From NCBI GenBank assembly GCA_002245135.1, contig NGBS01000585.1, forward strand, positions 1 through 64,000: 64,000 nucleotides of DNA, written 5' to 3'. The notes beneath the pieces are model-generated. The model made no database searches, was not told where the DNA came from, and saw nothing but the letters and a program-made list of their open reading frames with translations. Made by a program: the position numbers and the translations under genes. Shown in pieces: positions 1,341 to 63,797 of this stretch. The DNA is from Proteromonas lacertae. Its lineage: Eukaryota. The first letter of the stretch is position 1, and each line of letters starts with the position of its first letter.

Positions 1341-4300
1341 AATGTCTTTTCAAATTCATGAAATAGAAGAGATTTTGAAATATAAACTACCGAAATTGAA
1401 TGTATATGTATATAATATATGTATTAGATAAAAGAAAGGATTGAAAGAAGTGTAAATGAATTAGATTGTGTTGTAGAGAATGAAGATACTATTAGGGTTA
1501 TGAAGATAATCGATGTTGGTGGAATGAAAGAGAAAAAGATAATAAACTACTCAGAGAACAACTCTTTGTTGTTAGATTGTTGTTCATTTTACACTTGTCC
1601 ATTTGAAATTCAAATAATCGGGGCTAATTGATGATATTAGAAAGAAGCAATTACATCAGAGATTTTGAGAAGTAATAAAATGTAAGACACTAACTAGAGG
1701 TGATATATGTGATATATTATGTTCAATCTGTGGTATTTTGATGATATTTTGTGAATATGATTTAATAGTTAGTGATTTGAAGAGTAGTAACATTATATAT
1801 GAAGAAAATGATGATGTAAAGTTATGTGATTTATTCTTAAACACATTGAGAAAAGAGGAAGATATGAGATCATATGATATATGCTTCAAAAGCCCAGAAG
1901 AGTTGAATGGGTTAGAATGTAATGAAAGAAGTGTGATTTGGTCAATTGGATGTATTATTATATGAAATGATTTGTAAGAAATTACCATTTTGTGAAGATA
2001 ATAATATGAATAAAACAAAAGAGAATATTCTCAGATGTAAATACATTTTAGATGTAGAATGTGATGATAGAATAAAAAGAGATGATAGAAAGAATGTTAA
2101 AAGTGAATAGTGAAGATAGAATGAGTTTAAAAGAGTTGGAAAAAGAAATGATAAAAATGAATGAATTATTGAAAGAAGATGATTATTTAATGATGTATAA
2201 AGAAGAAAAGAAATATTGTATAGAAATGATAAATGTGCTCTTACACTTCCACTACTATTTCTACCAGAATATTATCTTAAAAGTGATAAATGGGAAGAAA
2301 TTCGTGATGTTTTAATAGAAATCTACAACAGCAAACCAAATGAAAGAATACTATCAATTTTATTGATGATGAAATTATATAAATATGATGAATCAATAAA
2401 AGATAAATTACATTTTCAAATTCATCATAAATGTAAAGGATATGAAGAGTGTTATTTAGATGAAATGATATTTAATATTGAAACTGATAAAGATTATGAC
2501 GTTACAGTAGATTATAGGTGTATATGTTTATGTGAAGAAGGGATTAGTTATTTCTTCAAAATGCTGAAATTAGTAAATCCAGAAATCTATTAATCTGTAT
2601 AATTTCTAATAATCTTGTTCATTTAGATTGTATAATAATTCCATTGGTGTATCAACCGCTGTTTGCATCATATTTAAGCCAATTATCAAATCTACAAGAA
2701 TTATGTCTAATATTTTGTTATCTTACTATTGATTTCATTGAATCATTTGTTAAATCAATTCCATATATGATAAAATTAAAGAATATGAATTTTCCATGTA
2801 TTATTATTCTATTTCAAATGCTATTGTGATATAGATAATCCAATTGGTGTAAAAGGATTTAAATTGTTACTTCCACATTTTCATTTATTAATCAACAAAG
2901 ATAATGAATTGTATTTTAGTGGTTTGAACTTAGATGATGAATTAATGATATTATTATCAGAAGAATTATACAAATATCCAAATCTTAGCATAATAAATAT
3001 CCAAGAAAATAAAAATATTCATTCCAAAGGGTTAAAAGCCTTGTGTTCTATATTTCCTGTTTCAAAAATAGGTCTTGATATTATTGAAAGAAAAGAATTA
3101 CTGATTGACAAAGATATTCCAAAATTCATCGAATGCATGGAGGAAACAGAATATCGCATTGATACATTAAATCTAAGAAATTTAGAAATTGATGATGATT
3201 ATTTGAAATCATTAATTTTATTAAGAGCAAATGAATTAAGAAGAATAGAAAAGTTTGATTTGAGTTGTATAATTTGATATTTTTCTACTATTTAGATAAT
3301 AAACTAACATGCAAAGTATAGAAATACTAATCAACAATCTCTCTTCATTTTCAAGTCTTAAGGTAATTCGATTAAATGGAAATTTGATAGGAATGAAGGA
3401 ATGAAATATTATCTCCACATTTACATTATTTAAAAGATGAATATAACACAATTGATTGTTCTAGTATAATGATTATTGTTTAATATGTAATAGAAATGGG
3501 ATTATCTTCAGATGGATTAACATATTTATTAGATGGTTTAAAAATATTCAAGAAAGAAAAGAATTACTTGATATAAGTGATAATTATATTGATTCATCTG
3601 GAATGAGAATGTTTGATGAATTATATGAAAGAAAATAATAAAATTGAAATTTCTTCATTCATCGTATATTAAATTAAATATAATGTTATAATATTGTTTA
3701 ATAGACAACTCAATTGGTAATCTTGGATTTAAATTGCTATTTGACAAATTAATAATGTTAAATGATGATGATGTAATAAACTTGAGTGATATATCTATAG
3801 ATGGTGAAAGTGTGATATTATTAACAGAAAGAATAGATTCAATTAGTGGAGCTGAAGTAATAAATCTAAGTGGAAATAATATCAAAAAGATCAGTTAAAG
3901 TCAATTTGTTCAAAATCATTAGAAAGTGGACTATATCCTTTCATACAAATGAATAATCCTTCTTGGACTAATGAAGAATTGGAATTATATTTGAAGTATT
4001 GTATAAAAAAGAAAGGAAGTGGATTATGATGTAGATTTTAATTTATCAAGTATATATGTTATTAGTATATGATGAATAGATTTAAATTTCAATGATTCTC
4101 ATATTTCATTGATTAAACAATTCACTTTATAAGAATTAGATTTATCAAACAACAGAATAAGTTCAAAAGGATTGAAGGAATTAATTGATGCTTTGCCAAA
4201 GAATGCAGACATTCACTATATATAATTATGAAAGAGAAGATATATACATATTTCAATATATAATAATCCAATTGGAGATGAAGGGATAGAAATGATTTGT

Positions 4301-24844: not shown

Positions 24845-27196
24845 TTACATCAACAAGAACATAGCAAATACAGCTACAAACAATGCCATCTTGACTGATG
24901 CTGTAAATGCACCTTTAGGAATAGGACAAGTAAAATCACTCTCCTTACACTTATCAAGAGGTGGTTTTGTTGGTATAACACTGGTATAAGAAGTAGCAGA
25001 TAGTTGATAAGGTGAACGACCAACATTAACACATGGACCACAGTTGCAGACATCTGTGCAATGGTCATCGGGAGTGCACCAACCAAATACACCAACATAA
25101 TAATGACCTGGACGAAATAATGAACTATTGGTGAATATATCAATATATCTGATTTCTACTTGAGCTAGTTTGTAAGTATAATCATATATTGTTGGTTTTT
25201 GAAAACTACGTGATACTAGTAATTCAGGCCAAGAATAGTAAGCAGGACACTATTAATAAAATAATCTTTAAATTATACTTCTTCAGCATCTAAATAACTA
25301 TTAAGTTCTACACGAATATTCTCAGTGTTATCTTGTACACAGAATTGATAATATTTATATCCATTTGCTGCAACAGTATCTTGTGGTGGATTTACATTCA
25401 ATATGTTATTACTCTCATCTTCATATTTCAATGTTAATGTGAACTTTCCTCTTTCAGTTTCTCCTTCACATTCTGCTTTTGCAGCAACATAATATACACA
25501 AGCTTCATTTTCATTATATCCACAGTAATTGCTAGTACGATAAACTCTATCATATGCATTGATAAGTCTTGTCATTGTATTTTCATTGTCTTTTCTATTC
25601 AAATACCATCCTTTCATGTTGTAATGTGGATATGGTGAATATAAATTGGAAATCATTAATTTATAAACATTTGTCATTTGATCAACTGTTACTCGGACAT
25701 TCTTACAAGCTTGAGTTGGACTGAATCTGAAATATCGATAATGACCACACTATTCATATAAAATTATTATAAATATAATTTATTATTTATTACCTTCAAA
25801 TCTGATATTTGATATGGACTATTTTCTCTTATATCAGTATAGTCTTTATCTTCAATAAATTCTGGTGGATAGGTAACTTGATTATTACATAAATCTTCAG
25901 CAACTAATGAATTAAAATAAGTATATATGATTATTAAATAAATAATAATATAAAATAGAAATATAAAATCTCTCTTTATTTCCTTCTCTCAATTAATTCT
26001 AAATGTAGGTGAATTCAATGTAATTATTATTATTATTATTATATATTCATTGCAAGCTGTTATTATTTTACTTAATTTACATTATTATTACTATATATTA
26101 TATATTAGTATGTATTAATAACGGCTTTCCTACGCTGGTTCTGACCAGATCAGGTTCAAAGGGTATAATCTCAGTGATATATATACATATATATACATGT
26201 TTATTTAACATTTATGAATAAGAGAGATATAGATAGAGTAAGTAATATTCTTTTAAATGTAAATATATGTATATATCACACCCCTAGCCTTTTTTATTTG
26301 GAAGAGAAGAAATAGAAAATAAAAGAAAATAAAAGATAGAAAGTAATGATGCTATACCCTCAGTAACTGTGACTTTCAATGTAAATTTAGCTGAATCACT
26401 TAATGCACAGCTGGCTGTATCAGTACATCTGTCTTTAATAACCAAATAATAATGACCAATCTTTTGACCTTTCTCATTGGCTGGAATTGTTAATAATTTG
26501 TTGTTCTTTAATCTTGTATCTAATGAATACACATAGTCTTCTTCTGTAGCATCACGTGTATAATGGGATAATAATCCAACTGGAGTTACTTTTGAATTAT
26601 CTGTTGTTAATGAAACTGTAACATTCGAACATTTTTCAACACAGAAATGGTATTTGTGTGTGCTATTTGATCCTAATACTTTTGGATCTAAGTTCTTATT
26701 GGAAATATCAGTGTCTCTGTCAGGAGCTATTTCATAATATATAGTATTACAGAAATATATACAATCAATTAAGGAAACCTTAAGAGTAAATTTTGATTTC
26801 TCATCCTTTGTTGGTACATCACTTCCACAATAACCTAAAATGCCAATATATAAAGGCCCTGGTTCAAATTCTGGATCCCAATGAGAAATAGTGAAATCTT
26901 CATCTCCCCACTCATAAGATGTCCATGTTAAATCATGAAGAGTGGGATTTTTCACATGACGACTTACATATAAATCTGGTTGACCTTCAACGGTATGAAC
27001 CTTTATATTCACATCTTTGCAATATGTTGGAACGTTGACAAAGAAATAACCATAGGTGTTACACTATAAATAAGGTAATTTTCAACAATTATACTTCAAG
27101 CGAAATAACGCTGGTCTCTTGGTCAAAGCCTATTTCAGTAGGTTCCTGTATGGCATTGACAGCAAGAAATAAGCAGATTAACAATAACTTGTTCAT
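24845..27196 (-). CDS. Secreted, probably GPI-anchored surface protein with ~4 Cys-containing PPC-like beta-sandwich repeats; host of TPP riboswitch intron
   Basis: Signal peptide MNKLLLICLFLAVNA. Repeats of Y-x-Y-x-F...PDLYVS...PT..D.TW...G.YY.G..G.C...FTL.V. C-terminal hydrophobic tail KGAFTASVKMALFVAVFAMFLLM*. The exons join in frame across the 25904-26357 intron. Confidence 0.8.
25904..26357 (-). other. Unusually long (454 nt) GT-AG intron
   Basis: Donor G|GTATAG at 26357 and acceptor TTCATTAG|TT at 25904. Splicing gives ...VTVTE-VAEDLCNNQ... in frame. Other introns in the window are mostly ~25-60 nt. Confidence 0.85.
26123..26289 (-). ncRNA. TPP (THI-box) riboswitch aptamer with extended P3
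   Basis: Minus strand reads GGCU-AGGGGUG-[UGAUAUAUACAUAUAU...AUAUAUGUAUAUAUAUCA]-CUGAGAUUAUACCCUUUGAACCUGAUCUGGUCAGAACCAGCGUAGGAAAGCC. Elements: P1 GGCU/AGCC, P2 GGGGUG/UACCCU, J3/2 UGAGA, J2/4 UGAA, P4 CCU/AGG with the GCG bulge, P5 CUGGU/ACCAG. Confidence 0.93.
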
Positions 27197-32098: not shown

Positions 32099-33610
32099 TT
32101 ATCTGATTATTATATATCTTCTGTACGTTCTAAGTGAAGCACAATAAGTACATTGTGCATGATCTTGATTGAAATGAGTTTGTTGTTTTTTCTTATGGCA
32201 TGAAGTGCATTCTGTAATTCCATTACCATCTGTATCTATTACATCCCAATCATGTATTTGTTTTTTTATATTTACTATTTTTCTGTTATGTAAAACTGCA
32301 CAAAGTAAACATATGATTCTTCCATTCGATAAACTCTCATAATAATATTTGTTAGTACTTCTTAACTTTCTTCTACAATTTCCATCTTTATAAGAAAACA
32401 TTTCAAATGGATTTTTATATGGATGAGGATTTTCTATATCATACCAGCATTTATATCCCAATTCTTTATTATTAGGATCAAAATATTCAGGTTGAGGAGG
32501 CATACAATTATACGTTAATCTTTCTTCTATTTCTTTTTTATTAATATCTTTAGGAACAGAATAACTCCAACCTTTTGGTTCTTGATAAAGATGTTTTTCA
32601 AATAAATGTCTTAGTCCTTCAGGAATATCATTATTTCTTAAATAAACATCAATTAAACGTTTGTATACAGAATCTACATCTTCAACTATATTACTACTTT
32701 GAATCATTTTAATAGCATTAGTTGTTACATCATTTCTAACATTTTCATCAACATTAGATGACATTATACTATACGAATCAGATGGTGGTGGTTGAGTTAA
32801 TGGTTTAGGTGGAGTTAATGGTGGTTGAATTATTGTTTCAGGTATAGTTACTGAAGGTGAATAAGTATTAAGTATGCCAGGATTATTAATTGCATTATTT
32901 TTAACTTTACTTTTATTAATAACCAGATGTTTTGAACGTTGAACAGCAACTACATTTGAATTTTGTTCAATATTCAATTCTTTCTTTTCATGCTTTACAC
33001 CATTTGATTGTGATATTATTGTTTCATCAAGTGTTGATGGAAGTAAATAACCAGAATTAATCACTTCTGCAGTATTAGACATTAGTTCATCAGTTATATT
33101 ATGGTTCATGTTATTAGTATCATGCGATCTATCTACTTCCATTTCATTGATAGGAAATATTGTTCCTATTGCTGTAACTAACCTTTCATTATCTATACTT
33201 ATGTTTTCATCAATTGGTAGTGAAATATCTACACGATTGTTGGTTCTTCTATTCTCTAAATTGTCATTGTCAACACTTATAAGAGATGGTTGCATTAACG
33301 GCTGCAACGTGCTATGATCGTCTTTTATCAACACTTTAGCACCACTCTTGTTATATATAACGGTATTTGACTGATTTTTACATTCTTTTACAGCTTCATT
33401 ACCTTCATTAATTTCATCTCCATCGTCTTTATTTATGCAATCTTTTGTGAGTTTAACTCTTGTAAATAAATCATCTACCTTGTTTATCTCATCTGATAGT
33501 TCATCACAACCTACATCTAAGCAAAATGATAAAGTAAATAAAAACTTTATCCAAGAATATGTATGTCTATCTGAAATATCATCAAATGTATCGTAATAAG
33601 TGTTATTCAT
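32099..33610 (-). CDS. Intronless orphan family copy 1 (C-terminal Cys-rich domain)
   Basis: 503-aa uninterrupted ORF with EIEERLTYNCMPP...NGRIICLLC...DWDVID...CxxC...CxxC. Confidence 0.75.
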   Translation of the reverse strand: MNNTYYDTFDDISDRHTYSWIKFLFTLSFCLDVGCDELSDEINKVDDLFTRVKLTKDCINKDDGDEINEGNEAVKECKNQSNTVIYNKSGAKVLIKDDHSTLQPLMQPSLISVDNDNLENRRTNNRVDISLPIDENISIDNERLVTAIGTIFPINEMEVDRSHDTNNMNHNITDELMSNTAEVINSGYLLPSTLDETIISQSNGVKHEKKELNIEQNSNVVAVQRSKHLVINKSKVKNNAINNPGILNTYSPSVTIPETIIQPPLTPPKPLTQPPPSDSYSIMSSNVDENVRNDVTTNAIKMIQSSNIVEDVDSVYKRLIDVYLRNNDIPEGLRHLFEKHLYQEPKGWSYSVPKDINKKEIEERLTYNCMPPQPEYFDPNNKELGYKCWYDIENPHPYKNPFEMFSYKDGNCRRKLRSTNKYYYESLSNGRIICLLCAVLHNRKIVNIKKQIHDWDVIDTDGNGITECTSCHKKKQQTHFNQDHAQCTYCASLRTYRRYIIIR

Positions 33611-34094
33611 TAAGTGCTAATGATATGAAAGGATTTTTAAAATTTTGGAATAAAAAATAGAGTCGTTTTAGTGGAATTTTACATGAAAATTTGAAGCAAT
33701 AAATGATTTGTATATATAGTTAACTATGAATAACAGAAAGTTAACATGTAGTATATATAGTTATTTAAGAAAATAATCATGCTCTGTAGAATGTAGTTAT
33801 TAATAACATGTATAAGAGTATTTTTAAATCTGTTATAAACAATTGGTGAAAATATCAAACATGATGAATTCTTTGAGTGATTTAGATTACACCATCACTT
33901 ACAATGGAAGATATTATTTTGAAAATATTTAGCTGTATTCATCTGACATATATACAGCTAAATAGCGTAGTGTTGTTATTATTCTCAATATTTTAAATAT
34001 CTGATTGTAAAACAAAAATAAATACAATTAATAGTTGTAGTATATATTCTATGGATATAATATTAAGTATATAATAATAGAGAATGAATCTCAT

Positions 34095-35423
34095 CTAGTT
34101 TTTTTCTTTTTCCTTTTTTCTTTTTTCTTTTTCATTGAAATATTTTTGAAATTTAACTATTCTTGAACAGAGACTACATCTTCCTTTTCGCAAACCACTT
34201 TTCAATCCAAAATGTAATAGTTTTTTATATTTATTACATGTATGACAAAAATCTGTATCATCACTATCTTTATCTAATACATCCCAATCTTGAAGAAGAT
34301 CATTATCTTTTAATTGTATATTATTCAGAACAGCACATGGAATACAAATAATTCTTCCATTTGATAGATTTATACATGAAAATTTGTGTAGTTTTTCTAA
34401 TTTTTTTTTGACACATTCATCAACAAATACCAACATCTGTAATGGATTTTTATATGGATGAGGATTATCTTCATCATAGCAACATTTATAACCCAATTCT
34501 ATATTATTAGGATCAAAATATTCAGGCAGAGGAGGCATACAATTGTACGTTAATCTTTCTTCTATTTCCTGTTGATCAATATTTATAGGAATATAATAAA
34601 CTGATCCGTCAGGTTGTTGATATAAACAATCCATAATCATTTTCTTCAGTTTTTCGTCTTTCATACCAACTATATTATATTTTTTGATATATTCTGCCAT
34701 ATGTTCTTCATAACTTAAATCTGTATTTCCAAAAAATTGGCTTTTACTTCCATTTAATAGCGGATACTCTGAATTAACAGAACCTGATGGTGATAATGGT
34801 GAAGAAGGTAATGGTGATGAAAGTAAAGTATTATTACAAAATGAATATTCTCCTTTAGCTTGATAATTATCACTGATTATAATACTGGGAGGTTGATCTT
34901 TTGTTGCAGGTGTATTCCAAGTAAATACCTGAGCAGTATTGGATATTTGTTTATCATATATGTCACTGTCACTGTCGTTATCATTTGGCTCATGTTCTTC
35001 CATTTCATTTCTTTGAATTGGTAGATTAACGCTACATTGAGTTTGTTCATTTTTGTGTTGAATTAACACTTTAGCTGCTGCTCTACATTTTATTGTTAAG
35101 TTGTTACTGCTACTTAAAGATGTAGATGATTTGATAAAATCATAATTAATTCGAGAATCAATAGGAGAGAGAGGATCTGTGTCAGATAATAATTGACTTT
35201 CTTCAAAAACAATTTTTGGAGAAGATGAAAGAGAGTGTTTCCATATGTTCATATTTAATACTTTTATTCCATTATTAGTTTTTATAAACTTTTGAAATTC
35301 TCTTTCATCTTGATTTTCGAATTTTCTACGAGGTAATTGTAAACTCAGTTCTTCAGAATTTGTATCACTTGAATAGTTAGCAAATCCAAAATTGTAATAA
35401 TAGTTTACTACAGAACTTGCCAT
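34095..35423 (-). CDS. Intronless orphan family copy 2
   Basis: Same C-terminal domain as copies 1 and 3. First ATG at 35423 (MASSVV). Confidence 0.75.
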   Translation of the reverse strand: MASSVVNYYYNFGFANYSSDTNSEELSLQLPRRKFENQDEREFQKFIKTNNGIKVLNMNIWKHSLSSSPKIVFEESQLLSDTDPLSPIDSRINYDFIKSSTSLSSSNNLTIKCRAAAKVLIQHKNEQTQCSVNLPIQRNEMEEHEPNDNDSDSDIYDKQISNTAQVFTWNTPATKDQPPSIIISDNYQAKGEYSFCNNTLLSSPLPSSPLSPSGSVNSEYPLLNGSKSQFFGNTDLSYEEHMAEYIKKYNIVGMKDEKLKKMIMDCLYQQPDGSVYYIPINIDQQEIEERLTYNCMPPLPEYFDPNNIELGYKCCYDEDNPHPYKNPLQMLVFVDECVKKKLEKLHKFSCINLSNGRIICIPCAVLNNIQLKDNDLLQDWDVLDKDSDDTDFCHTCNKYKKLLHFGLKSGLRKGRCSLCSRIVKFQKYFNEKEKRKKEKEKN

Positions 35424-35614
35424 ACTTATGTAATGAAACGAAAAAACAAAATTTTTGTTTCTAAAAATAGTGCCGTTATAGAAAAAAATTAGGTAGAGGA
35501 ACAACTCTACTAATATCGCATTTTGTTAAAGATACTTATTACTAATGTATGTAGCATACAATCCAAAAACTTATTCTATACAATAAATCAAGGTTTTTGA
35601 CTTTTTAATTTCAT

Positions 35615-35735
35615 TTAAAATACTAATCAAATGTAAGTTACACAGCATATATTACTATATTTTTAACATAAGTTCGTTTATCTAATACTATAACGGTTTT
35701 GGCAGTCAGATTGCGACTCTAATCGCTAACTGACA
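35615..35735. repeat. 121-bp dispersed direct repeat, copy A (ends in GTCAG...CTGAC hairpin)
   Basis: Nearly identical to 37913-38033. Confidence 0.9.
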
Positions 35736-36176
35736 AACTCTAACATAATTAATTATAGTATTTGAAACACTGATCAGTTGTTGGAAATATCAAACAATGG
35801 AAGATATTATATTAAAAATATTTATGGATGTAGATATGATAATGATAATGTATCTAGAGTTTATTTATACTTTAGAATATTCCTTATAATGTTTTTATAA
35901 CTATATCTGGCATATCTTCTATATTTTCTTCAGCTGGCTTAATATTGTATAATCAACGTATGCAAGTTGGTAATAGTTATTTAAAGATGGTATACTGCTG
36001 TTCTAATAAATAGGGAAAAGCTTTAGAATATTAAAAAATATCAAATAATCTAGCCTTCAATATAATATGACTATTTATATAAATACAAACACAAACACAT
36101 AATTTATATTTACTATATATGGCGATAAGAATATGATTAATGAGTGAAATATTGTATGCGTTTAATTATGTATCTT

Positions 36177-37304
36177 TTAAACATCTAAAATGCATCTTGT
36201 ATATGTTCTACGTGAAGCACAAAAAGTACATTGTTTACTATGCTTGATTTGATTGTAATGCATGTCTTTTTTTAATTTGCTACATCCTTTACATCTTCTA
36301 GTATGACTATAAGTATCTATTACATCCCAATCTTGTAATTGATCTATATGTAATATGTTGCTATGATTCAAAATAGCACAAACAAGACAAATAATTCTTC
36401 CATTTGATAGATTTTTGCATGAATATTTTTGTAGTTTTTCTAATTTTATTCTTTCATATTTATCAACAAATATAAACATTTCAAATGGATTTTTATATGG
36501 ATGAGGATTTTCTATATCATACCAGCATTTATATCCCAATTCTTTATTATTAGGATCAAAATATTCAGGTTGAGGAGGCATACAATTATACGTTAATCTT
36601 TCTTCTATTTCTTTTTTATTAATATTTTTATGAATTTTATAAACTGCTCCATTTGGTTCTCTGTAGAGAAGTTTCTTAAACAGAGTTGTTATTTTATCAT
36701 TTAAATCATTGAAGTTATTTCTTTTGATAAAATTATTCATAAGTTCCACAAAACTTAAATTATTTGGAGGAGGTATAAATGGTCTTGGAGGTGGAACAGT
36801 TAATCTACCATCACTAGCAATTACTAATAAATCACATACACTATTATTCAAAAGTGAATTTCCTTCCGTGTTTGTCTGTATTTCATTATTTTCAACAAAA
36901 TCTAATTCTAATTCTTTTAATTCAGTTAATGGAATGGATGGTGATGAAGAATTACCTAAAACATCATAAAAAGAGTCAATCTCAGAAAGGCTTCTTTCAT
37001 AATCACTATCAACATATTCATTTTCTTCACCCATATTATTTCCATTATCTTCGATAAACATTGCTTTATTAGCCTGAGTTTCTCTTAAATCATAATTTGG
37101 ATATGGAGAACTAATTTCTTCGATTCTGTCACTTTTTTTTGCTCTCTCTCCATTATTGCATTTTAAAACTTTATTCATAACCTGTTCAAAACCCAAATAA
37201 TCTCTTTTCTTGCTTTTCAACAAGTTATTTTCAGTAGTCTCTTCTATTGAATTACCGAAGATTAAGTCATGATTATATACATTTAAATGTGAATTATATG
37301 CCAT
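36177..37304 (-). CDS. Intronless orphan family copy 3
   Basis: 375-aa ORF with the same C-terminal domain. Confidence 0.75.
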   Translation of the reverse strand: MAYNSHLNVYNHDLIFGNSIEETTENNLLKSKKRDYLGFEQVMNKVLKCNNGERAKKSDRIEEISSPYPNYDLRETQANKAMFIEDNGNNMGEENEYVDSDYERSLSEIDSFYDVLGNSSSPSIPLTELKELELDFVENNEIQTNTEGNSLLNNSVCDLLVIASDGRLTVPPPRPFIPPPNNLSFVELMNNFIKRNNFNDLNDKITTLFKKLLYREPNGAVYKIHKNINKKEIEERLTYNCMPPQPEYFDPNNKELGYKCWYDIENPHPYKNPFEMFIFVDKYERIKLEKLQKYSCKNLSNGRIICLVCAILNHSNILHIDQLQDWDVIDTYSHTRRCKGCSKLKKDMHYNQIKHSKQCTFCASRRTYTRCILDV

Positions 37305-37912
37305 TTTTATGATTTTATAAAAATATATTCGTTTTATAAAAATTACAGTAGAAAATAAACCACAACAACGAAAATATTTAACATGTTATTAAATATATTT
37401 TATCTGGTTATTAGAATATATGCTGCTAAAAGAATAAATTTAAATATACTACAACAGTAAATTGTATATAGTGTATTTAGAATATAATATAGTGTTTCTG
37501 AGTAGAATAATTATCTATAATAAATATTAAATGATGTTATAATAGTTGTAATGTACTTGTGGTTAATTATAACTTTACGTAGTAATCCATACACAAATAC
37601 ATAATCATAGTATGAAATGTAGTTGATAATGAATATCAAATATGCGATTCAAAGCTTCTACTCTATTAATTCTATCTTCTTCTTTAATTTACACTCACTC
37701 TATATCTTTTATGTACTTTATATGCATATCAGAAAGTGTATTGTTCATAATATCTATTATATTTGTAGTGGATTTATAATTGTTGATTATCTCTCTTTTT
37801 CATCTCAAACTTGTAATTGCTTGGTTATATCATCTTCATACATCAGGAAATGAAACATATCACAAATACTAGGTATAACAGCTAATATTTTCTTTACATT
37901 TTTTAAATTCAA

Positions 37913-46619: not shown

Positions 46620-47839
46620 TTATATTGATACATCATACAATGAGGTTATTTTCAAACCTTTTTGCCATTCATTTACATCAATCTTTGAATAGGTTTTATA
46701 CTTCATTAAATATTCCTTGCCTGGAACAACTACCATACCATTATCACTAAAAATACCTTTAACAGGATGTTCTAATAATGTATAAGGAGCTGGCTTATCT
46801 GTTGTTAAAACAAACTCTAATTCATTTTCATTGATTAATTTAACATCTTTTACAGATATAGTTGGCTTTTCTAATTTGATTGATTTAAATCCACCATAAT
46901 TTTGGTTTGGATAGAACCAATTTGTTGATAATATTTCTTTTGTATTAGCATCAGTTAAAATCAAATTAACAAATACTTCTTCTTTATTCTTTCCTTTCAA
47001 TGTTTCGCTGAATGATTTCTTCCATACTTCAGTTGAGTTATGTAAAGGATTATCAACTGTTAATGATTCACTACTGATTAAATTGCCACTCCAACTCCAT
47101 ATTTCGACTGTTAAATTGGATTGACTCTTTACAACTCTATCACTTATTACATAAATAACAATATTATCATTCTTATCATCAAATGCACTAACCAAAACAG
47201 TAGAATAGAATCTTTTAACTGCATAATGTAATAGTTTCCATCTACCATCATACTCTAAACTAGCCCATGTTACACCTGCCCAAATATCATTCAATTGCCA
47301 ATATAATGATCCCATTGTATATGCTTCAGGATTGCTCATTTCACGACGATAGTACTCTGCTCTGGATGACATACAGATGGATTGAGTTACTTGACTTATA
47401 TAAATATATTTCTTGAAATAATCTTCAGCTGATACTTTCTTTGGCATATTAAAAAATGATTTTATTTCACCATCTAAATATCCAAAACCACCTCCCCAGA
47501 TATGTTGTCTATGATAAATAATTTGACTATCCATATCAAAATATTCAGGTGAAATTTCTTGCTGCCATGTATAGATAGATGGTAATGATTGAAAACCATA
47601 TTCACTAACAAATCTTGAATGAGGGAAGGTAGAAATATCAGTACATTTAGATACATAATCATAATGATGAATATCACCCATTGCTCCATTCTTCTTTTGG
47701 AAATATATTCTTAACAGTCCTAATTCTTTATCATCTAACACATTTCCGTAACTTGGACTTCCTGATAAATAATCTCTATATTTATCATTTCTTCTCATTT
47801 CATCATAGATTGTATCAGTATACATTTTACTATTTAAAT

Positions 47840-47871
<32 letters not shown>

Positions 47872-49381
47872 CTTATAATCATCCCATCTTTGAATATCAA
47901 CAGAATTAGGGAAATTTTCATTATTTCCACTCCACATTACAATCGAAGTATGATGTGATAATCTTCTAACTTGATGTCTGATTTCTAATCTCACACTATC
48001 AATAAATGGTTGATGTACTGGCACAGCTGTACAAGCAAACATAAATTCACCCCATAACATCAATCCCATTTCATCTGCCATATCATATACAGAATCTCTT
48101 TGATATAAACCACCTCCCCATATTCTCAACATATTTTGATTTGTATCTATTGCACTTTGGAACAATTCTCTAAGATGTTCATCGGTTACTCTACTATCAA
48201 ATGCATCAAAGGGAATTACATTACTTCCTTTAATAAAGATTGGAATATCATTCATTGTGAAATACATTAAATGACCTTCATCATGAGGTGATTTTTCTTG
48301 ATGTAATTCTACTGTTCTATAACCAATATTCTTTGTTATATTTTGTTTATCTCCATTGGTTGATGTTAATGTTACTGTTAATGGATATAATTGTTGTTTT
48401 CCATAACCAAAAGGCCACCATAATTCTACTGATTTTCTTTCAACTGTAAAATGCATTTTTACTTCAATTTCTTTTACACCATTTGAAGTGAAAGTTGCTT
48501 TTTGTGATATTCCATTTACATTAGCAATCATTGCACCTTCTGCATTCTCTGTTGTTTGTAAATAAACGGACATATCATACTCAAAATCTCTTTTTTCATT
48601 TTCATGAATATTTGGCACAACATATGTAATAAATGCATCATTAACAGTTATTATTTTTATATCTTTATAAATACCACATGGCACAAATACTGGACCCCAG
48701 TCCCATCCAAAATCACTTTGTGTTTTTCTAATAAAAGCTCTATGTGCATCAGGAATACCATAATCATTTACTTCATCATTAATTGAATATGGATGTCTTT
48801 TAGATTCTTTTCTGGTATAAGTAACAGCATTTTGGAATTGAACTGTAATATTGTTTGTACCAACTATTAATTTATCGGTAATATCTTGGATATATCTCAC
48901 AAACATGTTGTTTGTATCTAATATCACTTGATTGTTTAATCTATATTAAAATAAATAAATAAAAATGTGTTTTATACAAAACAGTAGCAATTGTATCAAT
49001 ACCTTCTGCAACTAAAAACTGACGACGAGCTATAATTTTGAATAACAAAACAATTATACATTTTTTTACATCTGCAGATATATCAAATGATCTAAAATAC
49101 TTCCAATCTTCAAATGCAACCCATGTTTGTCTATAACATTAAAACACGACTTATACTCTAAAACATGATCGTTAAAATATGGGTCATTTATTATTTTAGA
49201 ATTTAATAAATCCATGTGAACTTGGCCAGGAACTTTGGCAGGTATAATAATTGATCCATTAACATTTCTAACATTCCATTCCCCATTCAATGAGATTTCC
49301 CTACATCATATTATTAAATAATAATAAATACGAGTATGCACAAGCACACGACAATAAAATGGCAAGATATACTATTTTCAT
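46620..49381 (-). CDS. MANBA: Beta-mannosidase, glycoside hydrolase family 2
   Basis: Signal peptide; VPGQVHMDL, IRKTQSDFGWDWGP, NMLRIWGGG, WSGNNE, RFVSEYGFQS, YWQLNDIW, GRWKLLHY. Confidence 0.93.
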
Positions 49382-56698: not shown

Positions 56699-59600
56699 TT
56701 ATTTTATATTCCAAAATTCTTTAGACAATTCTCTCTTCACTTCTTCTGAAATTCCATTTAGCTCAATTATTCCAATTGATGAAAATGTTTTTAAAAATGA
56801 TTGTAATTGTGATATTTCAATATTCTCTTTTACAGTTATTAAGAATGTTTCTAAACTGTCAAATATTTCTTTATTTTCTATTAGCAATTTTAATCTTTCT
56901 TCATTTAATTCATACTCCTAACATTGTTATCTTATTTAATCTTTTATAGTTTTTTAATCTATCTATAAGCATTTTTAATCCTTCATCACTCATTCCAATA
57001 TCTATTAATTTAAAAACTAATATGTTCATAAGATACTTGATATATTTATTGATGAATAATCGTTATACTTATACACAATTTTACCTATATTTTCACATAT
57101 TATTTTTATCCCTTCATCTCCAATTGGATTATGATGAATTGGAATGTATTCTGAATCTTTTGGTAAGTTTTCCATTAATTCCTTTAATCCTTTACTACTA
57201 ATGTTATTGTAAGCTAAATAAAGACTTTGATAATCAATTTGCTTGATTAATGAAATATGAGAATCATGAATTTTTAAATCTATTTCCATTAGAATTATAT
57301 AGTCTTTATACGTGCAAAATCATTTTCTCCATAATCTTTTCTCTTCTTTTTAATACAATAATTCAAATAATATTCTACTTCTTCATTATTCCATAATAGA
57401 TTTTTAATGTCTATAAATGGATATTCTTCATCTGCTAATGATTTTGAACAAACAGATTTTAATCCATCAATTCTGATGTTATTTCCTTTTAAATTTATAT
57501 TTTTACATTTACCTAAAGAATCTATTATATCTGATAATAAAATCACACTTTCATCATCTATTGATATATTACTCAAATTAATTTCACCATCCTCTATCAT
57601 CAATAGATTCGGGTAGTATAATAATAGGTTAAATCCATCATTACCAATTGGATTATCTATTGAAGAAATGATAAATAGTAAAACAAATATACTATGAATT
57701 AATAATTTTACAAAAGAGTATCTGTCATTATTCACCAAACATTTAATTAAATAATCTATTCCATCTGAATCTATTTTATTATCACTAACATCAAGCACAA
57801 TATTGTCATCATATTTTTCTAGAGATAAATATTGTAATCCATGTGAAGATAATCCCAACTCTATTTTATATTAACAAACAAATAATACTAGAAAAATAAC
57901 AAAAGAAGAAACTACTGAAACAATCACCTGTATTTTTCATAAAATAATGGTGATATGGTGATAATAATTTCATTCCTTCATCTCCAATTTCATTTCCATT
58001 TAAATGAAGTTTATAAAGTTTTGGAATTGATGATAGATTATTAATCAATATTTCTATACTTTTATAAGTCAGTTTATTATCTAAGAGGTATTAACATATT
58101 AAGTTATACTTCTCAAATTTAACTCTGTGATTTCTCTTAATTCATTTAATCTTAATGAAATGAATGATTTGAAGAAATCATCATCAATCCCCATATCACT
58201 CAAATCTAATTGACGCATAGTATTAATTAATTGCGGAATGTCTTTATCTATTAACAACTCTTTACATGGATCGCAATATGTATCTGGAAATTTGGAGAAT
58301 AAGGCTTTTAATGCAAATGAATGAATATTATCATTCCATTGAATATCTATTTTCTTAAGATTTGGATATTTATATAATTTTTCTGATAATAATATCATAG
58401 ATTCATCATTTAAATTCATTTCATAAAGATTTAATTCATTTTTACTATTAATTAATAAATGTAAATATGGAAGCAATAATCTAAAGCCTTTTGAACGACT
58501 GGATTAACTACAACAAAATTAGATCAAAAATAAAATAATATATACATGTAAGATTCATATATTTCATCATGAATGGAATTGATTTTATAAATGATTTAAT
58601 GAAATCAGAAGTAACACCACATGATGATATATTCAATTCTTGTAGATTAGATAATTGAGATAAATATGACCCAAAGAGTGATTGATACTGAAATGGAATT
58701 CTAATATTATCTAAACAAACAAATTAATAATATACTAAAATTCAGTTTTGTTGGATTTATTAATTTCATTATCCAAAAGAAATAATACATTCCTTTTTTG
58801 CAGGCACAAATATGATCTTTATCAATTCTAATTTCTTCATAATGACTAGAAACATTAAATATTATTCTATCTAATTTACATTTATTTCCTTCTTCACATT
58901 GGTGATTAACTTGAAATTTCAATTTCACGTTCTATTGATCTATCAAATTTGTATATTTTCATCATCAATAGCATAGCTAATATTCTTTCATTGGGTTTAT
59001 TATTGTATGATTCTATCAAATCATCTCGAACCTCTTCCCATTTATCACTTTCAAGATTGTATTTTAATGAATTAGTAATTGGTAGAGGAACAATCAAATA
59101 ATCATTATTGAATAACGTTTCTTTTCTTTCATTACACATCATTACATTATCTTCTTCATCTCTCAATATTTCACTCATCTTTATCATCTCTTTTTTCAAC
59201 TCTTTTAAACTCATTCTATTCTCATTGTTCACTTTCAACATTCTTTCTATTATTTCTTTCATTTTATCATCACATTCTATATCAAAACTATATTTACATC
59301 TCACAATATTCTCTTTCGTTTTTCTCATATTATTATCTTCATTGAATGGTAATTTATTGTTATCATCTCATATAAAATACATCCAATTGACCAAATCACA
59401 CTTTTCTCATTACATTCTAATCCATTTAATTCTTCAGGGCTTTTGAAGCATATATCATATAATCTCATATCTTCCTCTTTTCTCAATGTGTTTAACCATA
59501 CATCACAGATCTTTATTTTATCTTCTTCATATATCACATTACTACTCTTCACATTATCAGCTTCTACATCATATTCATTCAACATCATCATAAGATTGGA

Positions 59601-59950
59601 TATTGAACATATCACATCATAAATTTCCCAATTGCATATGGATTTATTCTTAATAATCTCTTCTAAATCTCTGTCATAGTATTTTCTTTCCAATACAACA
59701 TATGCACTGTTTTTATCGAATTGATTCATTTTATATGGAAGAATAAATGATAAACACCATCCAGAATAAGTTGCTTGATTTTCATAGAATTTTAATATTT
59801 TATTTTCTTTTATATCAGCAACATTCAAAATCTTCACCATATGTATATCATTATGTGTGTTGAACTGTCACATCTATTTCATTACCACTCTTTTTTACCT
59901 TGTTTTTTATCTACAATTGTATATAAGCCATAATACTTTAGCATGACATG
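56699..59950 (-). pseudogene. Degenerate (pseudo)kinase + RNI-like LRR gene, paralog of 1341-4666
   Basis: EADNVKSSNVIY, IKICDVW, FKSPEELNGLECNE, WSIGCILYEM with a frameshift near 59358. LRRs LNGNEIGDEG, NPIGNDG, YNNISSKGL. Start approximate. Confidence 0.7.
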
Positions 59951-60575: not shown

Positions 60576-63500
60576 ATGGATGCAATTATGTATACTAAAA
60601 AGAGGAACGAATTTGGGTTCCATTGCTACTTTGATGATGTAAAAGGTCAAATACTTCATACTGTTGAACCAACGTATAATTTATAGTAATGTAATATAAT
60701 AGAGGTGAATTTGATGATAAATATATATTTAGAAATCCTACAAGTGTTGAATTAGATACAACTCCTGATATATGTTATCATGCTGTATTGTTTGGATTTT
60801 ATATAAAAATTATAGGTTGGAACAGAAAGAGTCATTTTATGTAATAAAGGTATGCATCATACAGAAGGAGGCTGGCCAAAAGAAGTCGATGTTGATGATA
60901 ATGATGCAAAGAATCGTTTTAGAAAGAAGACAGAGAAGGGTATCGCTGATAAAGATGGATCTGGAGGTACTGCACCTATAGCAGAATCAATAAAACGTTT
61001 AGGACCAGTAATTGTAGAAAGTGTTCGTCAAAATAGTACAATAGATTTATACGAAGAATATTTTGATGGTGAAATGGAAGATCATTCAAGTGAACCACCA
61101 TCCGCTAAAGGTTTAGCCAAATTCAGAGATCCTAACGATGTAAAAAGATCAGCTACCAGTATCAATTGGAATCCAGAAGCTCCTAATAAATTAGCTATAT
61201 CCTATTCAATATTAAATTTTCAAGATCAAAGATTTTTAAATGAAAGAATGCCAGTACAATCCTATGTTTGGGATATTAACAATCCAAACGCTCCAGAACA
61301 AGAACTTGTACCAGCATCACCACTCTGCTGTTTGAAATTCAATAAATCTCCAGATACACTAGTAGGTGGATCATATAATGGTTTAATCACTTTCTTTGAT
61401 ATAAGAAAGTCTGGTGGTAATCCCTGTGAAGTATCTGTAATAGAAAACTCACATCATGATCCAGTATATGATATTCACTGGGTACAAAGTAAGACAGGTA
61501 ATCAATGTGCTTCAGTATCAACAGATGGAAGAGTGTTATGGTGGGATACTCGTAGATTGAATGAACCAACTGATGTAGTTGAATTATTAGATGAATCAAC
61601 AGGACAATTGTTAGGAGGTAGTTCAATGGCATATTTACAAGAAGCAGGTCCAACTAAGTACTTAGTAGGTTCAGAACAAGGTTTAGTTATAAATATCAAT
61701 ATGAGAAACAAGAAACAAGGAGGTGCTTTGACTGTATATGATCCAATAGGTAGACATCATGCACCAATCACAGCAATAGAAAGAAATCCAGCACATCCTA
61801 AATACTTCTTAACAGTAGGTGATTGGACAGCTAGATTATGGGTAGAAGACCTCAGAACTCCGATTATGACTACACAATATCATCCATCTTACTTAACATC
61901 AGGATGTTGGAGTCCAACCAGACCAGGTGTATTCTATGTAACAAGAATGGATGGTGTTGTAGATGTTTGGGATTATTTCCATACACAAAGTGAAGTTGCT
62001 TATTCACATAAGGTTGGTGATTTACCATTATCATCTATTGCAATTCAAGGTGCTACTAGAAATGGAGGTGGTAAATTAGTTGCTATTGGTGATGTTAGTG
62101 GTACAGTAACTTTATTAGAAGTATGTGATAGTTTATCAGTTCCAAGGTCGAATGAGAAAGTAGCGATAGGCAATATGTTGGAAAGAGAAACAAAAAGAGA
62201 AAAGAATCTAAGTGCAAGAATAAAGGAAATAAAGAAGAGACAACAACAGCAAGCATTAGAAAAGAAAGCTGAACAAGATATAGCAAGAGAAGCAAATTCT
62301 GATTCAATGATAGCTTTGTTGAAGAAAGTGGAAGAAGATTTTGATAATTTAATTAATGAAGAAGAAGAGGAGGAGAAGAAAGAAGAAAAGCCAGTTGCTG
62401 AAGCTGTTGCTAAAGAAGGTGATGATAGTAAACCAAAGAATCAAGAGAGTAAAGCAGAATTAGAAGGAGAAGCTAAACCAGCAGAAGGAGAAGTTAAACC
62501 AACAGAAGAAGGTGAAGCTAAACCAGCAGAAGGTGAAGAAAAGCCTGCTGAAGGAGAAGCTAAAGCAGAAGGAGAAGAAGTTAAACCAACAGAAGGAGAA
62601 GAAAAGCCTGCTGAAGGAGAAGCTAAAGCAGAAGGCGAAGAAGCTAAACCAGAAGGAGAAGAAACTAAACCAGTAGAAGGAGAAGAAGTTAAACCAACAG
62701 AAGGTGAAGAAAAGCCTGCTGAAGGAGAAGCTAAAGCAGAAGGCGAAGAAGCTAAACCAGAAGGAGAAGAAACTAAACCAGTAGAAGGTGAAGAAAAGCC
62801 TGCTGAAGATGAAGCAAAACCAGCAGAAGGTGAAGAAGGAAAACCTGTTGAAGGAGAAGCTAAACCAGAAGGAGAAGAAACTAAACCAACAGAAGGAGAA
62901 GAAAAGCCTGCTGAAGGAGAAGCTAAAGCAGAAGGCGAAGAAGCTAAACCAGAAGGTGAAGAAGGAAAACCTGTTGAAGGAGAAGAAAGTAAGGTTACAG
63001 AAGGAGAAAGCACATTTACTGATGATTTCAAAGAATCAGAAAGTAAAGTAGAAGAAGGAGAAGGAAAACCAGTTGAAGGAGAAGAAAGTAAAGTTACAGA
63101 AGGAGAATCACAATTAGTTGATGATTTTGAAGAATCAAAAGCTGAAGGAGAAGAAAAGCCAGAAGGTGAAGAAGAAGCAAAAACTGAAGAAACAAAACTT
63201 CCTGAAGGTGAAGCACAGGCTGAAGGAGAAGATAAGCCAGTAGAAGGAGAAGAAGAAAAACCTGCTGAAGAAGAAGAAAGCAATACAGACGATGCAACAA
63301 AACGAAAATTATCGCCTGGAAGAGAAATGGCAATTGGTCAATATGGTAATATACAAGATGTTCAATTAGAACAATCAACTGAAGAAGCACCAGCAGAAGA
63401 AGCAGCTCCAGTTGAAGAAGAACAACCAGCTGAAGAACAACCAGCAACAGAAGAAGCTCCAACTGAAGAGGAAAAACCAGCTGAAGAAGCACCAGCAGAA

Positions 63501-63797
63501 GAAGAAGCACCAGCTGAAGAAAAACCAGCAGAAGAACAACCAGCAACAGAAGAAGTTCCAACTGAAGAGGAAAAACCAGCTGAAGAGGAAAAACCAGCAG
63601 AAGAAGCACCAGCTGAAGAAGAAACACCAGCTGAAGAACAACCAGCTGAGGGAGAAACACCAGCTGAAGAACAACCAGCTGAAGAAGAAACACCAGCAAC
63701 AGAAGAAGCTCCAGAAGAAGATACAACCGATAAAGTTGAAGAAAGTGGTTTTGATGATGATTTTGCAGATAGTAAAGCAGAAGAATCAACAGAATAA
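60576..63797 (+). CDS. DNAI2: Axonemal outer-arm dynein intermediate chain 2 (IC2/IC69) with long acidic repeat tail
   Basis: YTKKRNEFG, GMHHTEGGWPKEVD, QNSTIDLYEEYF, FRDPNDVKRSA, SHHDPVY, FLTVGDWTARLW, WSPTRPGVF, MLERETKREKNL; WD40 core. Confidence 0.93.
62460..63780 (+). repeat. Coding tandem repeats (EGEAKPAEGEEKP; then EEAPA/EEQPA/EEKPA)
   Basis: Directly visible near-identical blocks such as gaaaagcctgctgaaggagaagctaaagcagaagg, repeated four times. Confidence 0.9.

Follow-up and report, generated by a model that had tools for sequence, protein, structure and literature searches.

Validated eukaryotic TPP riboswitches are described as OFF switches acting on splicing, including from introns within coding regions, where they give truncated alternative products (PMC3597705, PMC5882874, PMC10226581). 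In the plant THIC 3' UTR switch, the ligand-free aptamer is reported to mask an upstream 5' splice site (PMC10226581). Fungal and oomycete TPP switches are reported on biosynthesis genes and transporters (PMC5882874), and an account of eight TPP-switch host genes includes ATS1, which is folate-receptor-like, and UNK1, described as having no known domain (PMC4260697). TPP riboswitches on genes of unknown function are thus not unprecedented, ATS1 and UNK1 being reported cases (PMC4260697), and riboswitch-bearing unknown genes of Micromonas are described as rising more than 10-fold without thiamine (PMC4260697). Diatom FOLR genes carry TPP aptamers as well, with the qualification in that report that such aptamers need not regulate (PMC9544697).

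The 64-kb stretch of DNA analysed here (the window) holds a single copy of the TPP-aptamer core motif. Judged from covariance match, fold and helices, the RNA at 26289-26123 on the minus strand is a real TPP aptamer of the known class and is predicted to bind TPP. It lies in the third intron of a gene for a predicted surface protein. In our reading the aptamer is probably a splicing OFF switch and the protein a surface receptor that captures thiamine or a precursor.

The TPP aptamer

26123..26289, minus strand: TPP riboswitch aptamer (P1-P5, long P3, no P3a), from the RF00059 match, fold and helix check
26174..26279, minus strand: P3 stem, about 106-107 nt, AU-rich (GC about 0.18), from the RF00059 alignment, helix check and composition

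All helices and conserved junctions of the Rfam TPP riboswitch family (RF00059) are present. On the minus strand the 5' strand of P1 (26289-26286) and GGGUG (26283-26279) are followed, beyond P3, by CUGAGA (from 26174), the 3' strand of P2, P4, P5 and the 3' strand of P1, which ends at 26123; the hallmark elements claimed by an earlier, sequence-only reading of this DNA are therefore all in place, ordered and sense to the host pre-mRNA. The pyrimidine-sensing arm (GGGUG, P3, CUGAGA, ACCC) and the pyrophosphate-sensing arm (UGAA, P4, P5, CG-AGG) are both complete, and the L5 loop deviates from the consensus at some positions. P1 has 4 bp (-6.3 kcal/mol), P2 is paired at 6/6 positions, and free MFE folding of the 167-nt RNA yields P1-P5 without constraints (z -2.55), a result equalled by 3 of 200 shuffles.

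A cmscan of 601 nt (25900-26500) matched RF00059 over the full model (1-105) at 50.0 bits and E 7.8e-9, so that the covariance model recovers the aptamer, though below the Rfam gathering score of 54.3. The alignment places a 94-nt insertion in P3, which accounts for the lowered score, and because the score falls short of the cut-off, the whole 64-kb window gave 0 matches at Rfam gathering scores. Besides score and insertion, the window aptamer differs from the family in that its host is not a known thiamine gene. P3 is long in other eukaryotic TPP aptamers too, with 7-115 nt reported (PMC4260697). The GC of the whole aptamer is 0.30 against 0.21 and 0.15 in the flanking intron; its earlier description as a GC-richer island fits the conserved cores (0.73 and 0.47) and fails for the P3 region (0.18).

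Host gene and intron 3

The aptamer is enclosed by a six-exon minus-strand gene running from 27196 to 24845, with an open frame of 585 aa and five GT-AG introns of 31, 36, 454, 44 and 29 nt, of which the 454-nt intron 3 carries the aptamer. The features are as follows, all on the minus strand.

27095..27196, minus strand: exon 1, start codon and signal peptide (gene model)
26763..27063, minus strand: exon 2, domain A1, signature intact (6/6) (gene model, signature scoring)
26358..26726, minus strand: exon 3, domain B1, signature degenerate (3/11) (gene model, signature scoring)
26348..26363, minus strand: intron 3 5' splice site context, a candidate anti-P2 mask through pairing with the 3' strand of J3/2-P2
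25904..26357, minus strand: intron 3, 454 nt, phase 1, GT-AG, aptamer-bearing (gene model; homologues with the same position and phase)
26284..26286, minus strand: TAG at the aptamer P1/P2 junction, in-frame stop and candidate proximal 3' splice site
26057..26091, minus strand: candidate nested 35-nt GT-AG mini-intron behind the aptamer, speculative (sequence only)
25794..25903, minus strand: exon 4, linker and start of A2 (gene model)
25279..25749, minus strand: exon 5, domain A2 (degenerate, 2/6) and start of B2 (gene model, signature scoring)
24845..25249, minus strand: exon 6, B2 signature (11/11), hydrophobic C-terminal tail and stop (gene model, signature scoring)

Intron 3 divides module A1-B1 from module A2-B2. 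In the close relatives in public assemblies, P0001 (87% identical) and the members of its 90% cluster, the reading frame departs from that of the window gene and terminates immediately behind the donors of introns 2 and 3, which supports both introns. Together with the open 585-codon model and its five GT-AG introns, this upholds the intronic location that had been proposed. When intron 3 is retained, the frame stops at the P1/P2-junction TAG and gives 282 aa. The AG of the same triplet is the first usable acceptor after the intron 3 donor (74-nt intron, 259-aa product), and its possible use as an acceptor is suggested by the homologue L001, described below.

We regard it as very improbable that two genes are present here, or that the main product is an A1-B1 protein of 282 aa, ending in a hydrophobic tail of its own, with the aptamer in its 3' UTR. 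The frame does stay open for 25 codons into the intron, through a hydrophobic stretch, and stops at the first bases of the aptamer, but in close relatives the sequence departs immediately behind the donor and the frame ends at other lengths. The hydrophobic stretch is a pyrimidine tract, the downstream half has no signal peptide, and both P0007 and P0016 have all four domains in a single A-B-A-B chain, with the same pattern of degeneration.

An aptamer in an internal intron between coding exons is also found in Neurospora NCU01977 (Type II), in fungal Type III switches and in Chlamydomonas THIC (PMC3597705, PMC5882874, PMC10226581). Unlike these, the window intron has no upstream second donor, apart from weak GT sites in P2, and no significant long-range helix; its candidate alternative acceptor lies at the P1/P2 junction, and its host encodes a surface protein and not a transporter or enzyme. 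A candidate long-range helix between the 5' pyrimidine tract and a distal purine stretch was rejected, as equally good pairing occurs in 27 of 500 shuffles and in 147 of 426 real windows.

The encoded protein

The 585-aa host protein consists of a signal peptide, four jelly-roll domains (A-B-A-B) and a hydrophobic tail, which from its sequence is predicted to be GPI-signal-like or transmembrane. Hydrophobic segments are confined to residues 1-19 and 564-585, and the multi-pass topology of the known TPP-switch transporters is absent. The gene model and its hydrophobic ends thus predict a secreted, membrane-anchored repeat protein, in agreement with the cell-surface repeat protein first suggested.

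Pfam searches with pieces of the host gene gave nothing above cut-off, and in 5 gene pieces and 12 homologues none of the Pfam domains of THIC, THI4, NMT1/THI5, THIM, SSSP/SSSF/DUR31 or ATS1/FOLR was found. The sequence-only reading had called the gene unrelated to known thiamine genes. This stands in so far as the gene is not THIC, THI4, NMT1/THI5, a symporter or a folate receptor; the gene is more aptly described as a probable new thiamine gene. The nearest precedents are ATS1/FOLR and UNK1 of prasinophytes and diatoms, where the aptamer likewise sits on a gene that is neither enzyme nor transporter, some with signal peptides (PMC4260697, PMC9544697). ATS1 differs in being folate-receptor-like (PF03024, a domain without a match in the window gene).

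The model of the single-module homologue P0010 (pLDDT 87) shows two jelly-roll sandwiches. Its nearest folds are PliG and the collagenase collagen-binding/PPC domains (Z 10.7-11.8; 10.7-11.0 for PPC/collagen-binding domains alone), and the domain matches superpose with an rmsd of 2.4-2.7 over about 100 residues, with Z up to 11.8. As a unit, the A-B pair matches SIDT ectodomains. The domain fold is thus that of the PPC/collagen-binding/CUB-like jelly-rolls (PF04151, PF17065; PliG, ColG CBD, SIDT1/2, cubilin), including tandem pairs as in SIDT. The window sequence differs in lying below the Pfam cut-offs (15.4 bits against a cut-off of 27 for PF17065, UPF0669, with the window piece), and whole-chain TM-scores are at most 0.32. 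The A-B family has its own invariant motifs and cysteines and no solved relative by sequence (best E 0.59 in a search of solved structures); among A-B-type homologues P0016 alone passes the PF17065/PF04151 cut-off, at 28.5. The AlphaFold model of the four-domain homologue P0007 has a pTM of 0.79 and reports no contacts. Nothing in the domain fold, with PliG, collagen-binding/PPC and SIDT as nearest neighbours, points to thiamine, and no thiamine-binding protein is among the fold matches listed. Cubilin, a top fold match considered as a sign of vitamin binding, was rejected as a CUB-fold match with a TM of 0.15.

The residues invariant in 16 single-module proteins were taken as a signature, aromatic and acidic in character, and scored in 16 tandem proteins. 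Six of these 16 retain just one complete B (11/11) and one A (at least 4/6), and in all six the two lie in different modules: A1 and B2 in the window protein, P0007 and P0016, and B1 and A2 in P0017, L002 and L004. P0002, P0162 and P0163 keep most of the signatures of both modules, P0163 leaning toward retention in one module (B2 8/11), and the other seven tandem proteins are degenerate throughout. None of the 16 keeps solely A1 and B1 or A2 and B2. Since the signatures survive in different modules, we infer a ligand site formed between modules, by A of one and B of the other, with single-module members acting as dimers; truncation after module 1 would then destroy the site.

Family and distribution

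A word-index search with the first half of the protein returned nothing, and an exhaustive protein search recovered 204 relatives with E no higher than 0.001. Domains A and B together make up the family unit. This A-B module occurs once, with a signal peptide and a hydrophobic tail, in most animal members and twice in the window protein. Named relatives come from Corallochytrium (which we take to be the source of one relative from its 'Clim' prefix), Holothuria, Acanthaster, Diadema, Strongylocentrotus, Ptychodera, Trichoplax, Chara braunii and Mallomonas annulata. None of them bears a functional name and the family is uncharacterised; clusters in the ESM Atlas are hypothetical or PPC-like only. 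Pattern scans for prokaryotic or viral homologues confirmed 0 of 3, 0 of 4 and 0 of 11 candidates, a weak sign of absence for scans of this kind.

The Chara braunii protein P0009 carries two A-B modules joined to a preceding choice-of-anchor-I domain. This domain often accompanies phosphatases, and the fusion could suit uptake of phosphorylated thiamine. Eukaryotic proteins of 2000-3000 aa with 9-16 PPC/UPF0669-like repeats (P0003, P0004, P0006 and similar) match domain A weakly and are a separate large family.

A working switch on a protein with another task, a prey- or particle-binding adhesin or lectin raised in thiamine starvation so that the cell feeds more, is unlikely but deserves mention. 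The domains share the collagen-binding/PPC and PliG fold at the Z scores given above, the named protist relatives include a chrysophyte, and marine animals also carry the family; many chrysophytes are bacterivores. The set of invariant Trp, Tyr, Glu, Lys and Arg residues common to the window stramenopile, Trichoplax and echinoderms, however, fits a small-ligand pocket, and the TPP switches described in the papers considered sit on genes of B1 synthesis or uptake or on thiamine-responsive unknowns (PMC4260697, PMC5882874).

It is also quite unlikely that the family is the already reported UNK1 of Micromonas, in which case only the intron location and the lineage would be new. UNK1 (JGI id 56895, given in PMC9870897) is described with a TPP switch, no known domains and no multiple transmembrane helices (PMC4260697), and the A-B family has a green-lineage member in Chara. 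Against this, there is no Micromonas name among 31 proteins or 30 clusters, a weak point as most records are nameless, and the switches of that Micromonas strain are reported to lie in 3' UTRs (PMC4260697). Among the papers listed in literature searches, there is no report of the A-B family with a TPP switch.

The gene-switch link in metagenome homologues

Scanning metagenome contigs for the family gave 11 pattern matches, which resolve into nine loci (L001-L009). RF00059 matches 5 of the 9 with E between 5e-9 and 8e-4, all on the strand of the gene, at 57.6 (L006), 50.7 (L001), 39.8 (L009, cut at its 5' end), 37.9 (L004) and 36.4 bits (L007). Only L006 exceeds the gathering score; as the other four homologue matches and that of the window fall below it, long-P3 eukaryotic aptamers are missed at the Rfam cut-off. 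In L004 (938-1256) and L007 (1632-1953) the P3 hairpin is roughly 245 nt long (-93 kcal/mol), and the RF00059 alignment took the 3' half of this hairpin only, missing the true 5' strand.

All five homologue aptamers sit in the inter-module intron equivalent to the phase-1 intron 3 of the window, and the donor is in phase 1 in the window and in the five loci where it was checked, including L003, whose 128-nt intron at this position has no aptamer. L008 breaks off after 15 nt that match the first bases of the L006 aptamer exactly, L005 stops short of the inter-module intron, and L002 is fully spliced there. Since L004 and L007 represent a single gene, to which L009 is close, there are about four independent cases besides the window.

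A module tree of 43 rows unites the first modules of the loci with an aptamer in a single clade (support 98/93), which also includes P0017, P0029 and L002 and adjoins a clade with Mallomonas and L003. The modules of the window lie outside it, on long branches of unsure place, and are at most 40% identical to anything in the tree. The aptamer core is nearly invariant (33 of 61 columns in 6 sequences) even though the proteins are at most 40% identical. Double changes separate the P5 of the window from that of the homologues at 2 of 8 P4/P5 pairs, a level reached by 19 of 500 shuffles with 6 related sequences. The claim of a new host-gene class gains from this conserved link of gene and aptamer at the same intron in distant homologues: the family appears to be new for TPP switches, and the switch appears to have been kept across distant branches, the aptamer-bearing metagenome loci being few, non-independent and all in one clade.

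L003, P0026, P0037 and P0054 form a sister paralogue clade that has lost most signature residues, L003 also being without an aptamer; signature site and switch may have been lost together there.

Isoforms in homologues

Compared with L007, six coding introns are gone from L004. L004 also lacks a nested 74-nt GT-AG piece (L007 2150-2223), and the rest of the aptamer intron is kept. Being spliced elsewhere and retaining the aptamer intron, L004 is taken as processed, non-productive RNA; the kept intron could instead reflect slow splicing of a long intron. The nested piece removed in L004 may be compared with the speculative mini-intron at 26057..26091 of the window.

In L001, module 1 is free of the several introns seen there in genomic homologues, and its exon leads directly into GGGUG without the 5' strand of P1. 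This junction probably arose by splicing to an AG just before GGGUG, as we propose. L001 also has phase-1 GT sites inside P3, which makes its reading ambiguous. An AG right before GGGUG is present in the window and in L004/L007 and absent in L006 and L008, so a proximal-acceptor step would not be universal. When 189 proteins were examined for aptamer read-through peptides, the ORF of L001 itself was the only find; four further pattern matches, inside long repeat proteins, were taken as chance.

These isoforms bear on a further alternative, that the aptamer is intact but no longer regulates in response to thiamine. Diatom aptamers are reported not to confer thiamine regulation (PMC9544697), and the window aptamer has a sub-threshold score and an L5 loop off consensus. 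We nevertheless judge this distinctly improbable, given a 454-nt intron maintained where the other introns are 29-44 nt, the near-invariant core, the candidate compensatory changes in P5 and the probable non-productive isoforms in homologues.

Proposed mechanism

We consider it very likely that the aptamer is a working splicing switch, with a predicted response to thiamine. That the protein itself binds a B1 compound is predicted with less assurance, though we lean toward it. The scheme for low and high TPP follows from repression via splicing in validated eukaryotic TPP switches. At low TPP, intron 3 would be excised whole (26357 to 25904) to give the anchored protein of 585 aa. When TPP binds, the intron would be kept, or the donor would join the first usable AG at the P1/P2 junction; either product would end after module 1 (259-282 aa), without B2 and the true anchor.

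How the donor might be controlled is suggested by its pairing with the 3' strand of P2 (-13.0 kcal/mol), which is equalled at 6 of 1374 GTAW sites and 4 of 96 G/GTAT sites. The donor pairing prevails in the nascent RNA of 301 nt (P2 probability 0.011); once the intron is complete, the two folds are energetically even (0.73). Such a mask could keep the donor out of reach until the distal acceptor has been transcribed, and TPP would free the donor early for the near acceptor. The predicted mask would block the productive donor without ligand. As the pairing is not seen in folded L004 or L006, we treat it as a lead only. Masking of an upstream 5' splice site would resemble plant THIC, where the 3' splice site lies inside P2. 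It would differ from plant THIC in that the window intron is in coding sequence and the masking strand would be J3/2-P2 and not P4-P5.

More tentatively, and with slightly less than even confidence, we picture an old eukaryotic family of anchored B1 receptors that bind thiamine or a precursor between two-domain jelly-roll modules and are shut off by TPP in two distant stramenopile branches. The family would be common to stramenopiles, Corallochytrium, Chara, Trichoplax, hemichordates and echinoderms, and mis-splicing by the TPP switch would remove half of the binding site.

Riboswitch context is among the most reliable guides to the function of unknown genes, and here the switch connects vitamin B1 with a eukaryotic surface-protein family that is conserved and unannotated. 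With this locus and its homologues, the range of splicing TPP switches would take in a stramenopile that is neither ochrophyte nor oomycete, and chrysophyte-like protists as well. Many marine and freshwater protists are reported to depend on B1 from outside, and their means of scavenging it at very low concentration are described as poorly known (PMC4260697). If the receptor reading is true, a dedicated anchored B1 receptor would be a new uptake route, for which the animal members offer tractable proteins.

Other features of the window

The window has 28% GC and carries axonemal dynein genes. Among the 120 matches listed for its dynein intermediate chain, those with a taxon name are stramenopiles and no match exceeds 69% identity, and in a one-gene FastTree (41 rows, midpoint root) the window sequence falls outside ochrophytes and oomycetes. 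We read the lineage as a probable flagellated basal stramenopile, perhaps of an Opalinata-like kind. The same axonemal dynein intermediate chain gene (60816-63797, plus strand) has a Glu/Ala/Pro-rich repeat tail of about 490 aa.

Three paralogous ORFs of 505, 476 and 402 aa at 32099-37385 (minus strand) have a common C-terminal Cys-rich block and no Pfam match; they are an unannotated tandem family. A GH2 beta-mannosidase-like gene lies at 46620-48945 (minus strand). Related kinase/leucine-rich-repeat-like gene pieces at 2201-3277 (plus strand) and 57295-59867 (minus strand) have short motifs in common and probably belong to a repeated family.
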